Origin: Burkholderiales bacterium
Lineage (GTDB): Bacteria; Pseudomonadota; Gammaproteobacteria; Burkholderiales; SG8-39
Reading direction: 5' to 3'
NCBI GenBank assembly: GCA_036274335.1
Contig: DASUFW010000307.1
Span: forward strand, 1-62,678
Length of the DNA stretch: 62,678 nucleotides
Position 1 is the stretch's first letter, and every line of letters begins with the position of its first letter. The notes beneath the pieces are model-generated. The model was given only the letters and a program-made list of their open reading frames with translations. It ran no database searches and was not told the DNA's origin. The position numbers and the translations under genes are program-made. This document shows, piece after piece, positions 19,838 to 39,573 of this stretch.

Positions 19838-20479
19838 CTAGGGCATCTGCCGACAGACGGTGTACACGTTGGTGCCGGTCTCGGCGTACGCGGCGGGCAC
19901 CGAGGTGCCATCCACGGCCGGGCTGGGCGAGCTCTGCGCCAAGGCCCGCACGCTGCCCGTGGCGCCGTCCCCGTCGTCCATCTGCACGTCGACCGCCAGG
20001 GCGATCTTGTCCGGCAGGCTTGTCGAGCAGGCCATCAGCTGGCTCAGGCCGCCGAGCGTCGAGCCACCGGCGGCATCGCCGGTCTGCACGCCGATGATTC
20101 CCGACACCGCGTTGAACGGCTGCCTCTGCCCAGCGCCGACGATGAAGCCTGCCCGGCGCAGGTGGTCCCACCAGAGGCGCGATTCTCCCGAGCCGGCGCT
20201 CGCGTTGTAAGTGCCGCCGAGGATGCCGTCGCCGTTTCCGGGCGTCGCGCCCGTCCAGCGCGTCGCCCCCAGGTCGTCTCCGGGGATCGCGCGATAGCGA
20301 TCCTGGTAGCCGTGGTAGGCCGCGGAAATCCCGGAGAAGTCGGCGATCGCGCCTTTGACCTTCGCCTGCGCGATCAACTCCTGGCCCTTCAGGATGCCGC
20401 CGAGCAGCAGCCCGATGATGACCAGCACGATGGCGACCTCGACGAGGGTGAAGCCGGATTGGCGGCGCCGGGCGGCCAT
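19838..20479 (-). CDS. Type IV pilin, paralog 2 (prepilin-type N-terminal cleavage/methylation domain)
   Basis: ATG at 20479 preceded by AAGGAA. Leader MAARRRQSG followed by FTLVEVAIVLVIIGLL. C-terminal Cys pair. About 70% identical (by eye) to the upstream pilin. Confidence 0.85.
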   Translation of the reverse strand: MAARRRQSGFTLVEVAIVLVIIGLLLGGILKGQELIAQAKVKGAIADFSGISAAYHGYQDRYRAIPGDDLGATRWTGATPGNGDGILGGTYNASAGSGESRLWWDHLRRAGFIVGAGQRQPFNAVSGIIGVQTGDAAGGSTLGGLSQLMACSTSLPDKIALAVDVQMDDGDGATGSVRALAQSSPSPAVDGTSVPAAYAETGTNVYTVCRQMP

Positions 20480-20498
20480 GGGATCGTTCCTTGCTGGC

Positions 20499-20528
20499 AA
20501 AAAAAAGGGCTGGTCCGAGACCAGCCCT
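20499..20528 (-). terminator. Rho-independent terminator between the two pilin genes
   Basis: On the minus strand: AGGGCTGGTC-tcg-GACCAGCCCT (perfect 10-bp stem, 20506..20528) followed by T8 (20499..20506). Confidence 0.7.
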
Positions 20529-20547
20529 GGGATTGCGTCCGTCGCGA

Positions 20548-37420: not shown

Positions 37421-37424
37421 GCGC

Positions 37425-38849
37425 CTAGCGCTCCTTGGGCTCCGCCGTGTTCATGCGGCTGTAGAGGGTGGTGCGGTTCACGCCGAGCAGCTTCGCCGCC
37501 TGGCTCATGTTGCCGTGGGTCATGCGCAGCGCCGCCTCGATGTAGGCTCGCTCCCAGGCATGCAGCGTCGCGTCCAGACTGAAGCCGCCGCGCGCCAGCT
37601 CCTGCTCCGCCTCGGCCACCAGGTCGCGCGGTCCCGCCGGCCCGGCGCCGGCCGTCTCCAGGTCGAACTCGGGCTCCAGATCCGCCGCCGAGACGCGCGT
37701 GCCCGCCTGCTTGGTGGTGAGGCGGATGACGATGTTGCGCAGCTCGCGCACGTTGCCCGGAAAGCCGTACGCGAGCCAGGCGCGCTCGGCGGCTTCGTCC
37801 AGCGTGAACGGCGCGACGCCCGCCTGCGCCGAATACTCCCGCCGGAAATGATCGAGCAGGATCATGCGGTCCGTGCCCATTTCGCGCAGCGGCGGCACGG
37901 TCACGGTGAGCACCGAGAGCCGGTGGTAGAGGTCCGCGCGGAAGCGCCCCTGGCGCACCTCCTGGCGCAGGTCGCGGTTGGTGGCGGCGATGACGCGGGC
38001 GCGCGCCACGCGGCGTTGCGTCTCGCCCACGCGCTGGTACTCGCCATTTTCCAGGACGCGCAGCAGCTTCGCCTGCATCTCGAAGGGCAGCTCCCCGATC
38101 TCGTCGAGGAACAGCGTGCCGTCCTGCGCGTCCTCGAAATATCCCGACTTGTTCGAGGTGGCGCCGGTGAACGCGCCCTTCACGTAGCCGAACAGTGTCG
38201 GTTCGACCAGCGTCGGCGCGATCGCCGCGCAGTTCAGCGCGAGGTAGGGGCGGCCTGCGCGCTGCGAACCCCGGTGCAATGCGAGTGCGACGCGCTCCTT
38301 GCCGCTGCCGGACTCCCCCTCGATCAGCACCGGGAAGGGCGCGTCCGCGGTCTGCGCGATCTGGTTGCGCAGGCGCACGAGCGCGTCGCTCTCGCCGATC
38401 AGGCGCTCGCCGGGCGCGGCCGCCTCGACCGGCGTCCCGCCGAAGGCCAGCGCGCGGCGCAGCGTCGCCTTGATCAGCTCCGGGTCGCTCGGCTTGGCGA
38501 TGAACTCGACCGCGCCGAGCGCCCGGGCGTGGCGGGCGTGCGCCGCGTCGTTCTGGCCGGAAAGCACGAAGATGCGCATCGCCGGGGAGTGGGCCAGCAG
38601 GTCGGCGATCAGCCGGAACCCTTCGTCCGGCGTGTGGGGGCGCGGCGGGAGTCCGAGGTCGACCAGCGCGAGCGGCGGCGCCTCCGGCAGCTGGCGCAGC
38701 AGGTCGATCGCGTGGCGCCGCGATTCGCAGGCGAGCACCTCGAAATCCGTGCCGAGCGCGAAGCCGAGCGTCTCGGCGATCAGCGCGTCGTCGTCGACGA
38801 GCAGGAGCGCCGGCCGGGCGCCGCGCGGCTCAGTCGCGCCCGTCGCCAT
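37425..38849 (-). CDS. Sigma-54-dependent response regulator (NtrC family; PrsR-like receiver loop)
   Basis: ATG at 38849. Receiver domain (LLLVDDD, VDLGLPP), AAA+ domain (GESGSGKE, GAFTGA) and a C-terminal Fis-type HTH (AAKLLGVNRTTLYSRM). Confidence 0.9.
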   Translation of the reverse strand: MATGATEPRGARPALLLVDDDALIAETLGFALGTDFEVLACESRRHAIDLLRQLPEAPPLALVDLGLPPRPHTPDEGFRLIADLLAHSPAMRIFVLSGQNDAAHARHARALGAVEFIAKPSDPELIKATLRRALAFGGTPVEAAAPGERLIGESDALVRLRNQIAQTADAPFPVLIEGESGSGKERVALALHRGSQRAGRPYLALNCAAIAPTLVEPTLFGYVKGAFTGATSNKSGYFEDAQDGTLFLDEIGELPFEMQAKLLRVLENGEYQRVGETQRRVARARVIAATNRDLRQEVRQGRFRADLYHRLSVLTVTVPPLREMGTDRMILLDHFRREYSAQAGVAPFTLDEAAERAWLAYGFPGNVRELRNIVIRLTTKQAGTRVSAADLEPEFDLETAGAGPAGPRDLVAEAEQELARGGFSLDATLHAWERAYIEAALRMTHGNMSQAAKLLGVNRTTLYSRMNTAEPKER

Positions 38850-39573
38850 GCACGCAACGCAGGTAGGCGCGCTCGAGATTGGGCTCCGCGTAGCGCGCGC
38901 ACAGCTCGGCGGGCGAGCCGCGGAAGCGCAGCCGGCCGCGCTCGAGCACGGCGATCCCGGAGCACAGCTCCTCGACGTCCGAGAGCACATGCGAGGTGAA
39001 CAGCAGCGTGCGCCCCTCGCGGCGCAGCCGCGCCAGCACTGCCTTGACCGCCAGGCGGCTGGCGGGGTCGAGCCCGCTCATCGGCTCGTCGAGCACGGTC
39101 AGTTCCCGGGCGAGGAGGAACCCGCCGGCGAGGCCGAGCTTCTGCGTCATGCCCTTGGACAGTTCGCGGACCGGGCGCTCGAGGGCGTCGGCCTCGAGCG
39201 CGAGCTCGTCCAGCAGGGCGCGCGCCTCGGCCTCCCGGTACGCGCCGCCGCCCAGCTGCACGGTCATCGCCAGGAACTCGCGCCCCCGCAGGTAGTGCGG
39301 CGGCAGGAACCGCTCGGGCACGTAGGCCAGGCGCACGCGGGACTCGGCCCGGCTGCTCACCACGTCGAAGATCTCGATGCGCCCGGCGTCGAAGGCGCAG
39401 AAGTCAAGCATGCATTTGAGCAGCGTGGTCTTGCCGGCGCCGTTCGCGCCCACCAGCCCGAACGCCTCGCCCTGCGCGACCTCGAGGTCGACGCCGCGGA
39501 GCGCCTCCCGCGCGCCGAAGCGCTTGGTGAGGCCCGTCACGCGCACGGCGGCGCCGGTCACGGCTCTGTCCAC
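38830..39573 (-). CDS. ABC transporter ATP-binding protein (ABC-2/DRR-type)
   Basis: 247 aa with a GTG start. Walker A GANGAGKTT, signature LSKGMTQKL, Walker B LTVLDEP. First gene of the pilus operon. Confidence 0.85.
   Translation of the reverse strand: MDRAVTGAAVRVTGLTKRFGAREALRGVDLEVAQGEAFGLVGANGAGKTTLLKCMLDFCAFDAGRIEIFDVVSSRAESRVRLAYVPERFLPPHYLRGREFLAMTVQLGGGAYREAEARALLDELALEADALERPVRELSKGMTQKLGLAGGFLLARELTVLDEPMSGLDPASRLAVKAVLARLRREGRTLLFTSHVLSDVEELCSGIAVLERGRLRFRGSPAELCARYAEPNLERAYLRCVHGDGRD

Follow-up and report, generated by a model that had tools for sequence, protein, structure and literature searches.

What kind of machine does a cluster of type IV filament genes encode when its parts recall more than one known system? 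We addressed this question for a 17-gene block at positions 19838-39573 of a 62,678-bp contig (hereafter, the window) from a metagenome-assembled genome (MAG) of an uncultured Burkholderiales bacterium. An earlier note, made from the DNA sequence alone, had placed the block in the branch of the mannose-sensitive hemagglutinin (MSHA) pilus, with an embedded ATP-binding cassette (ABC) transporter and two-component pair. Two main scenarios may explain such a gene set. First, the block could encode a surface filament related to MSHA pili. Alternatively, it could encode a machine resembling type II secretion systems (T2SS), with a short periplasmic pseudopilus. Our results favor the first scenario: the block probably encodes a self-contained type IV filament machine of MSHA/T2SS-like type, most likely a surface pilus, with PilS/PilR-like regulation and an ABC module.

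Raw lists of open reading frames (ORFs) are crowded because the genome has a G+C content of about 70%. Genes were called from a third-position GC (GC3) frame plot combined with ORF analysis and start-codon inspection, and the frame plot resolved a single coding frame at each position. Between 39573 and 24570, twelve minus-strand genes run head to tail; a plus-strand kinase gene comes next, and four further minus-strand genes then extend to 19838. At the junctions, genes overlap by 20, 4, 4, 20, and 1 nt or are separated by 4, 4, 49, 31, and 1 nt, and a gap of 108 nt (start at 35857) or 69 nt (start at 35896) precedes the secretin gene. The frame plot, the ORFs, and searches of Pfam and NCBIfam reproduced the 17-gene map, the junctions, and the domain content given by the earlier note. 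Five products (513, 202, 145, 608, and 239 aa) match no family in Pfam or NCBIfam, and the hallmark proteins of the locus carry "hypothetical" annotation in public records. Related loci are named below by handles such as L083; a scan of one genome per species gave 207 relatives. Genes lie on the minus strand of the window unless stated otherwise.

Core assembly proteins

The secretin (579 aa, positions 34118-35857) contains the Pfam domains Secretin and Secretin_N_2. Its start at 35857 yields a signal peptide with the lipobox LAGC at its end, as in a lipoprotein; the alternative start at 35896 would give a protein of 592 aa. Among NCBIfam models, MshL (TIGR02519) scored 240.3 bits against a cut-off of 250.2, compared with 154.6 bits for GspD and 98.6 bits for PilQ, whose cut-off is 284. 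Among solved structures, the protein is nearer to GspD than to PilQ.

The assembly ATPase (569 aa, 30978-32687) matches T2SSE at 2e-126 and carries an MshEN domain. A tandem MshE-type cyclic di-GMP (c-di-GMP) motif occupies residues 13-63, and the corresponding model, NF053729, scored 59.4 bits and passed its cut-off of 38. The MshE protein of Vibrio cholerae has an ATPase N-terminal domain of this c-di-GMP type (PMC4624765). Over the full length, the GspE (520 bits) and PilB (511 bits) models fit about equally well, both below cut-off. A strict pattern for the first c-di-GMP motif was found in 64 of 73 ATPase homologs and a two-motif pattern in 0 of 73; the motif region is visibly conserved across the homologs displayed. 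Next to the ATPase gene lies that of an inner-membrane platform protein of the GspF/PilC/MshG type (401 aa, 29741-30946), with two stretches matching T2SSF and a GspF score of 301 bits, below cut-off.

Two further proteins are of kinds that accompany secretins in MSHA and some T2SS loci. The ExeA/GspA/MshM-like AAA+ ATPase (484 aa, 35966-37420) matches AAA_22 at 5e-28 and scores best in NCBIfam with TIGR03015 (206 bits, below cut-off). Beyond the ATPase domain lies a hydrophobic segment, and the C-terminal 80 residues (window positions 35966-36300) give a weak SPOR-like match in Pfam (E value, 0.0044), which recurs in the homolog from L084. ExeA of Aeromonas carries a different peptidoglycan-binding domain; the SPOR-like end may be a domain swap that keeps the same role. 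The second protein (458 aa, 32737-34113) is a membrane-anchored tetratricopeptide repeat (TPR) protein with matches to TPR_16, TPR_2, and related families, a hydrophobic segment, and a Pro/Ala-rich linker; it is MshN/GspB-like by position.

A PilM-PilN fusion and its small partners

The 513-aa protein encoded at 28198-29739 is deposited as "hypothetical protein VFV84_12505" and is one of the five products lacking a Pfam or NCBIfam match. Comparisons of its family with PDB and Pfam at the sequence and profile levels gave only weak matches to GspL_C, found in 4 of 29 members. In its AlphaFold2 model (mean predicted local distance difference test [pLDDT] score, 87), an actin-like domain at the N terminus is followed by a long helix that spans the membrane and by an alpha/beta domain at the C terminus. 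In a Foldseek search, the top matches grouped the N-terminal domain with PilM (5eou and 2ych; E value, 2e-10) and also with the cytoplasmic domain of EpsL/GspL. Given the Foldseek matches to PilM and GspL and the GspL_C matches in four members, the predicted structure identifies the protein as a PilM-PilN fusion of the GspL/MshI type.

Two small proteins follow. By position, size, and topology, the first, a bitopic membrane protein (202 aa, 27593-28201), takes the place of PilO/GspM/MshJ, and its gene lies directly 3' of the fusion gene in every locus examined. Comparison of its family by hhalign with the PilN-like part of the fusion (probability, 2.4%) and with PDB profiles gave no support for PilO or PilN. 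The second (145 aa, 27159-27596) has a Sec signal peptide and takes the place of PilP/GspC/MshK. Both its motif, GRLFFTPEQR, and its gene position are conserved; it has no Pfam or NCBIfam match and no detectable PilP homology. Since neither protein has detectable homology to the PilO or PilP families, their PilO- and PilP-like labels are positional.

Pilins and minor pilins

Four genes in the locus are prepilin-like. Two encode 213-aa paralogs with an N_methyl domain: pilin1 (20548-21189), likely the major subunit, with two cysteines in its C-terminal part, and pilin2 (19838-20479), which lies 3' of a terminator. Related loci have one or two copies. The similarity of pilin1 is to type IV pilins in general, and its match to the solved MshA structure (E value, 0.62) is confined to the N-terminal helix. 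The same holds for the GspG and GspH models, which meet the pilin-type proteins in that helix alone, at 24 to 27 bits against cut-offs of 80 to 89.

The other two are candidates for minor components. The 260-aa minor pilin (24570-25352) has an N_methyl domain, the prepilin motif G|FTLTE, and weak N-terminal matches to GspH and GspG. The 608-aa protein (25352-27178) begins with RxQRGxALL followed by a hydrophobic helix, as in a GspK-like large minor pilin or pseudopilin lacking Glu5. Its N- and C-terminal regions are conserved, whereas the middle varies in length among relatives, from 328 to 875 aa. The AlphaFold2 model (pLDDT, 78) has a 59-residue N-terminal helix (residues 11-69) followed by beta-rich domains, and a fold search with the globular part found no match in PDB. 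The description "pseudopilin-like" is weaker than the earlier note stated, relying as it does on the GspK-like N terminus without Glu5 and on this helix; "PilO-like" was likewise claimed too strongly. Most of the other domain labels were borne out by Pfam and NCBIfam, and the PilM-PilN fusion by structure. The 608-aa and 260-aa genes go together, with two tandem pairs in L167 (12765-17947) and none in L168 (12198-14900); this variable copy number and the variable middle would fit a surface-exposed tip or adhesin module.

Class of filament

In the MSH class of type IV filaments described by Denise et al. (2019), the genes lie in a single locus without a prepilin peptidase (PMC6668835). The same is found here, where none of the 17 genes encodes a peptidase of family A24 and PilT is also missing. 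With the MSHA system of Vibrio cholerae (mshIJKLMNEGF/mshBACDOPQ), the block further shares an ExeA-like ATPase corresponding to MshM, a TPR protein corresponding to MshN, a lipoprotein secretin that scores highest with MshL, an ATPase carrying an N-terminal domain of the MshE type, a GspF-type platform, and a fused PilM-PilN-type protein. For the platform and the ExeA-like ATPase, the match to MshG and MshM is at the family level (two T2SSF stretches and AAA_22, respectively).

Other features set the block apart from the Vibrio system. The gene order is M-L-N-E-G-I-J-K rather than I-J-K-L-M-N-E-G-F, as the earlier note had claimed. The proteins in the I, J, and K positions and the pilins have no detectable sequence match to the named families, and no MshA-type major pilin was found, the resemblance of pilin1 being limited to the N-terminal helix. 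Vibrio MSHA loci have seven prepilin-like genes, compared with four here; with these four present, the earlier note was too firm in seeing no counterparts of mshB, mshC, mshO, mshP, and mshQ. The ExeA-like protein is a long one that has a membrane segment and ends in a SPOR-like region; the secretin falls just below the MshL cut-off; and the sigma-54 two-component pair and the ABC module are extra. The assignment to the MSHA branch holds in part: the ExeA-like and TPR proteins, the MshL-like secretin, the MshE-type domain, the single locus, and the lack of a peptidase all agree with it, whereas the secretin score and pilins unlike MshA make strict membership in the MSH clade tentative. An MSHA-like type IV filament is a reasonable reading, and we file the locus as an MSH/T2SS-like variant. 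Because a fusion of the GspL type and a protein of the ExeA type occur here alongside a secretin of the MshL type and a c-di-GMP domain of the MshE type, the boundary between MSH and T2SS is blurred, which has a bearing on how these classes are defined.

As a machine, the locus would work as follows. The GspE/PilB-family ATPase, with an MshE-type c-di-GMP-binding motif in its N terminus, would supply the power, and the GspF-type platform, the PilM-PilN fusion, and the 202- and 145-aa proteins at the sites of PilO and PilP would form the inner-membrane part. The two 213-aa pilins would make up the filament shaft, which the 260-aa minor pilin and the 608-aa GspK-like protein probably prime or cap. 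The filament would leave through the lipoprotein MshL-like secretin, whose insertion is probably aided by the ExeA-like ATPase and the membrane-anchored TPR protein. Prepilin peptidase and any retraction ATPase must be encoded outside the locus.

A machine resembling T2SS, in which a short periplasmic pseudopilus would push folded proteins through the secretin, has to be weighed component by component. In its favor, the fusion has the architecture of GspL, its model matches cytoplasmic EpsL/GspL, and some family members match GspL_C. An ExeA-like ATPase with a TPR/GspB-like partner is also known from the T2SS of Aeromonas and Vibrio, and the C terminus of the ATPase is putatively peptidoglycan binding, as in systems with GspA/GspB (ExeA/ExeB). 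Homologs of GspE, GspF, and GspD are present as well. The secretin points both ways, being structurally nearer to GspD than to PilQ while scoring far better with MshL than with GspD (240 versus 155 bits). So do the pilins: their N termini weakly match the GspG and GspH models and the 608-aa protein has a GspK-like N terminus without Glu5, yet the pilins are 213 aa long with two C-terminal cysteines, compared with about 140 aa for GspG, and only two genes are minor pilin-like. A T2SS by the strict gene set was rejected, since D-, E-, F-, and L-like parts are present without GspC or an H-I-J set; GspO is also missing. The lack of a prepilin peptidase in the locus is as in MSH loci (PMC6668835), and a c-di-GMP-type ATPase N-terminal domain together with sigma-54/NtrC control of a monocistronic pilin gene is typical of adhesive or motility pili (PMC4624765, PMC8657755). 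A possible substrate is encoded in L083 (20588-21584), where a 1,317-aa protein with Sortilin-Vps10, ASH, and HYDIN-type Ig repeats starts directly 3' of the pilin gene; it could also be an adhesin. Taken together, we consider a T2SS-like system unlikely. A surface pilus is the likelier product because the pilins are 213 aa long and have a Cys pair, the ATPase has a c-di-GMP-type N-terminal domain, and control of the pilin gene is of the PilR type.

Two other candidates were rejected. A type IVa pilus does not agree with the fused PilM and PilN, the PilQ score (98.6 versus 284 bits), or the lack of PilT and PilD in the locus. A PEP-CTERM/exosortase system is suggested by the best NCBIfam models of the regulator (PrsR), the kinase C terminus (PrsK), and the ExeA-like protein (TIGR03015), all scoring well below cut-off in a locus with no exosortase, PEP-CTERM, or polysaccharide genes, so that the resemblance probably reflects shared family ancestry rather than function.

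Probable sigma-54 control of the pilin gene

In the type IVa pili of Pseudomonas, Xanthomonas, Myxococcus, and Geobacter, pilA is controlled by PilS/PilR and RpoN (PMC8657755, PMC6060248). The pilus block contains a comparable set of parts. The NtrC-type sigma-54 enhancer-binding response regulator (474 aa, 37425-38849) has Response_reg, Sigma54_activat, AAA_lid_14, and HTH_8 domains and scores best with PrsR (348.7 bits) and NtrC (339.6 bits), both below cut-off. The kinase (about 576 aa, 22843-24573, plus strand) is a polytopic membrane histidine kinase with an HATPase_c domain. Its C terminus gives a PrsK-like match of 59.7 bits, below cut-off, and no PAS or HisKA domain was matched in Pfam. 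The frame plot indicates plus-strand coding from about 22760, and the likely start is the ATG at 22843; since the ORF is open from 22258, this start is not certain. The kinase gene is convergent with the minor-pilin gene and divergent from the permease gene, abc2. Between the start codon of abc2 at 22800 and that of the kinase gene at 22843 lie about 42 nt (22801-22842), so the two promoters must overlap or sit within coding sequence.

A sigma-54 (-24/-12) promoter, GGGCATGAATGTTGC, lies at 21233-21247 on the minus strand and begins 58 nt 5' of the pilin1 start codon. A strict search of the window alone for TGGCAC-N5-TTGC with one mismatch gave nothing relevant. Because the window copy, an 8/10 match, is unexceptional by itself, the case for the promoter rests on conservation. 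An element of the TGGCAC-N5-TTGC type with varying spacer precedes the pilin gene in 46/46 related loci, including the distant L083, at a distance of 46 to 73 nt in 45 loci and 98 nt in one, and it is also present in Accumulibacter L166. As a control, the gap between the exeA and secretin genes shows no conserved sigma-54 element. The promoter also varies with the kinase gene. Among the 74 loci where kinase presence could be scored, it was found in 67 of the 68 with an adjacent kinase gene (the exception being a 7/10 match) and in none of the 6 without one, counts that are phylogenetically non-independent because a single loss in one clade may underlie them.

Upstream of the promoter, tandem inverted repeats GTC-N8-GAC form a candidate enhancer at 21332-21319 and 21312-21299, about 85 and 65 nt 5' of the -24 element. 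Of 108 loci with the promoter, 53 have one or more exact copies 50 to 130 nt upstream (27 have two), compared with none of the 7 loci without it; the chance expectation is about 3% per 120 nt. The second copy coincides with a terminator-like hairpin and T-run directly 3' of the p239 gene (21297-21314), and the same 18 nt may double as the terminator of abc2-p239 and as a binding site for the pilin1 activator. An intrinsic terminator with a 10-bp stem followed by T7 lies after pilin1 (20506-20528). From these hairpins after p239 and after pilin1, pilin1 appears to be monocistronic and driven by sigma-54; no sigma-70-like promoters were found in the locus. The sigma-54 gene itself, rpoN (12915-14327), belongs to the left-flanking minus-strand cluster, about 5.5 kb outside the pilus locus on that side.

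These features suggest a circuit in which the polytopic kinase and the NtrC-type regulator would act like PilS and PilR: once phosphorylated, the regulator would bind at the tandem GTC-N8-GAC repeats and switch on the separately transcribed pilin1 from its sigma-54 promoter. With the sequence elements and their co-variation as its basis, this circuit is a well-supported model. The likeness to PilS/PilR systems lies in the membrane kinase and NtrC-type regulator encoded in the pilus cluster, the -24/-12 promoter before a monocistronic pilin gene, the tandem repeats upstream, and the presence of rpoN. In contrast, the kinase here lacks PAS and HisKA matches and is weakly closest to PrsK, the regulator scores about as well with PrsR as with NtrC, the two genes are separated by 13 kb, one toward each end of the locus, and the machine is MSH/T2SS-like, not a type IVa pilus.

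Some relatives may have an additional signaling input. A gene for a class III nucleotidyl cyclase (Guanylate_cyc, about 420 to 430 aa) is present in L166 (14836-16122), L167 (18139-19434), L168 (12846-14099), L169 (15815-17086), and the P0007 contig, and is absent from the clade of the window. In four of these relatives it lies between the minor-pilin and kinase genes; in L168, which has no such minor pilins, it follows a gene for a 171-aa protein.

A proposed ABC module

Three genes of the block encode a putative ABC module. At the upstream end, abcA (38830-39573) encodes a DrrA/NodI/GldA-like transporter ATPase of 247 aa with an ABC_tran domain (best NCBIfam model, drrA at 148.8 bits, below cut-off). 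It adjoins mlaF directly on one side and overlaps the regulator gene by 20 nt on the other. On the pilin side, abc2 (22036-22800) encodes a 254-aa permease of the ABC-2 type, matching ABC2_membrane_3, ABC2_membrane_2, and ABC2_membrane, and p239 (21320-22039) encodes a protein with one N-terminal hydrophobic segment and no Pfam or NCBIfam match, which we infer to be an accessory subunit. ATPases of the abcA family have ABC-2 permeases as partners.

The association of these genes with the pilus is persistent. Relatives of p239 number more than 559 in metagenomes, and in 29/29 p239-seeded loci of at least 9 kb, abc2 lies directly 5' and a pilin gene directly 3' of p239; wherever the sequence extends far enough, the pilus core precedes abc2-p239-pilin. 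Between the clade of the window and the Sulfuricella-like locus L083, p239 retains 49-55% identity, compared with 27% for the PilM-PilN fusion. In 29 of the 32 loci of at least 19 kb, that is, in every one reaching that end, abcA lies 5' of ntrC. No locus was found with abcA but without abc2 and p239: the clade of the window, L168, and the P0007 contig carry the complete trio, Accumulibacter L166 has none of the three, and abcA is missing from L166, L081, and L084. Because L083 has no nearby abcA, we infer the pairing of abcA with abc2 from this co-occurrence.

An ABC transporter linked to a pilin gene has a precedent. Type IVa pilus clusters of Myxococcus and Desulfuromonadales have the arrangement pilS-pilR-pilA-pilG-pilH-pilI (PMC6060248, PMC5544727), and deletion of pilGHI abolishes pilus-dependent motility in Myxococcus (PMC5544727, PMC6060248). 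The earlier note had presented the ABC transporter and the sigma-54 two-component pair as features that set the locus apart, a view that this precedent shows to be overstated. Both sets consist by gene content, rather than by sequence, of an ABC ATPase, an ABC-2 permease of about 250 aa, and a protein of unknown family, encoded beside the major pilin gene and alongside sigma-54 two-component genes. They differ in that the ATPase gene here is split off, starting about 16.8 kb from the permease start, the order is permease-accessory-pilin, and the pilus is of another class. We propose that abcA, abc2, and p239 form one exporter-type unit, genetically tied to the pilin cassette, that would serve pilin handling or pilus biogenesis, as PilGHI does in Myxococcus.

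A bolder proposal, possible though still rather doubtful, is that the three proteins form a dedicated pilin-handling device (for extraction, quality control, or export for assembly) that is obligatory for this filament class and a second, far more widespread counterpart of PilGHI. The whole system would then be a distinct, unnamed subclass combining GspL- and ExeA-type parts, an MshE-type motor gated by c-di-GMP, and a large, variable protein at the tip without a solved fold relative. If true, it would offer a comparative handle on the role of ABC transporters in type IV pilus biogenesis.

A very improbable alternative is that the ABC genes, the two-component genes, or both are unrelated neighbors, kept beside the pilus genes only because synteny between the mla and the kds-lpt operons has been inherited. 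In the clade of the window the whole neighborhood, including mlaF and kefB, is syntenic, so conservation there proves little. In L083 and the p239-seeded loci, kinase-abc2-p239-pilin follows the core in other genomic contexts, and p239 and abc2 are better conserved than the structural proteins. The modules can be lost separately, as shown by Accumulibacter without the ABC parts, five to six loci without the kinase, and L082 without all of them, yet the presence of the kinase predicts the sigma-54 promoter at the pilin gene. Likewise, abcA directly adjoins mlaF, but it shares a 20-nt overlap with ntrC, and its presence goes with that of abc2 and p239, not with that of mlaF. Loci in other genomes thus carry the ABC and two-component genes too, and the earlier suggestion that these genes belong with the pilus cluster is upheld by their retention across distant relatives with different flanks and, for the kinase and regulator, by the conserved promoter at the pilin gene.

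Several points weigh against reading the block as an MSHA/T2SS-like surface pilus with PilS/PilR-like control and an ABC module. In every member, the locus is known from genes alone. The secretin and the ATPase do not reach the equivalog cut-offs for MshL, GspE, and PilB; the pilins are unlike MshA beyond the N terminus; and neither sequence nor profile comparisons back the PilO-like and PilP-like labels. On the regulatory side, the sigma-54 element of the window is only an 8/10 match, one of 20 sites of such quality in the window, and the association between promoter and kinase may reflect one loss event in one clade. Finally, L083 has abc2-p239 with no abcA, ntrC, or exeA nearby.

Distribution and age of the locus

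The PilM-PilN fusion family comprises 1,937 clusters at 50% identity, nearly all of about 500 aa. Among the best 80 of the 207 relatives, nearly all are labeled as MAGs of uncultured Burkholderiales, Betaproteobacteria, or Proteobacteria, at 55-79% identity. In all 32 loci of at least 19 kb, the order of the 17 genes is unchanged as far as sequence extent and the tblastn filter permit a call, and the mlaF and kefB flanks are usually retained. More distant relatives, with 27-41% identity in the fusion, come from records labeled Azonexus, Sulfuricella, and Candidatus Accumulibacter. These have varied flanks and a fixed core of nine genes, encoding the secretin, the TPR protein, the ATPase, the platform, the fusion, and the 202-, 145-, 608-, and 260-aa proteins. 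Around this core, three modules vary: ntrC and exeA upstream; the kinase gene, abc2, p239, and the pilin gene downstream; and abcA at the far upstream end. In L083, which is Sulfuricella-like and has unrelated flanks, kinase-abc2-p239-pilin is kept after the core.

In the window, the left flank consists of the canonical minus-strand cluster hprK-ptsN-rpoN-lptB-lptC-kdsC-kdsD (11134-17957) and kefB (17551-19836, plus strand), which lies between this cluster and the pilus locus; mlaFEDA forms the right flank. These are the lpt/kds and mla neighbors that the earlier note had named. Its description of the block as accessory-looking was not borne out. The GC content of the block (0.66-0.72) equals that of the flanks, and an Accumulibacter genome, L168, and the P0007 contig likewise have the locus between mlaF and kefB-kdsD. 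A recent genomic island was rejected, given the uniform GC content and flanks conserved across orders. Since the same mla/kefB-kds position is occupied in Accumulibacter and other MAGs, the locus is old and vertically inherited at this chromosomal region.

We found no paper describing this variant in the literature searched, where coverage was incomplete, and nothing usable on a betaproteobacterial MSHA-like system or on a TGTC site for PilR of Pseudomonas aeruginosa within the same limits; together with the "hypothetical" annotation of the hallmark proteins, this agrees with the earlier view of an uncharacterized variant. The locus is a widespread, uncharacterized filament variant with an ABC module that is unexplained and clearly linked. 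Type IV filaments serve in attachment, biofilm formation, and secretion, and the carriers here include soil and groundwater Burkholderiales and wastewater-relevant Rhodocyclales (Accumulibacter and Azonexus). The locus offers a compact, testable circuit that runs from a membrane kinase through an NtrC-type activator, GTC-N8-GAC repeats, and a sigma-54 promoter to a pilin gene. It is, in addition, an independent and strongly conserved instance of an ABC transporter linked to a pilin gene, the role of such transporters having been unexplained since PilGHI was described in Myxococcus.

Not every copy of the locus appears to be functional. In L081, an Azonexus-type MAG, the ATPase and platform genes (7068-10004) are truncated and split by two opposite-strand genes for proteins of unknown function (198 and 234 aa), which looks like an inactivating insertion; in a second Azonexus record, L085, both genes are intact. 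The locus also appears, at 55-70% identity, in MAG records titled Enterobacteriaceae, Sphingomonadaceae, Clostridia, or Bordetella parapertussis (L007, L015, L021, L024, L041, L050, and L056), which are probably mis-binned contigs or have the wrong taxonomy.

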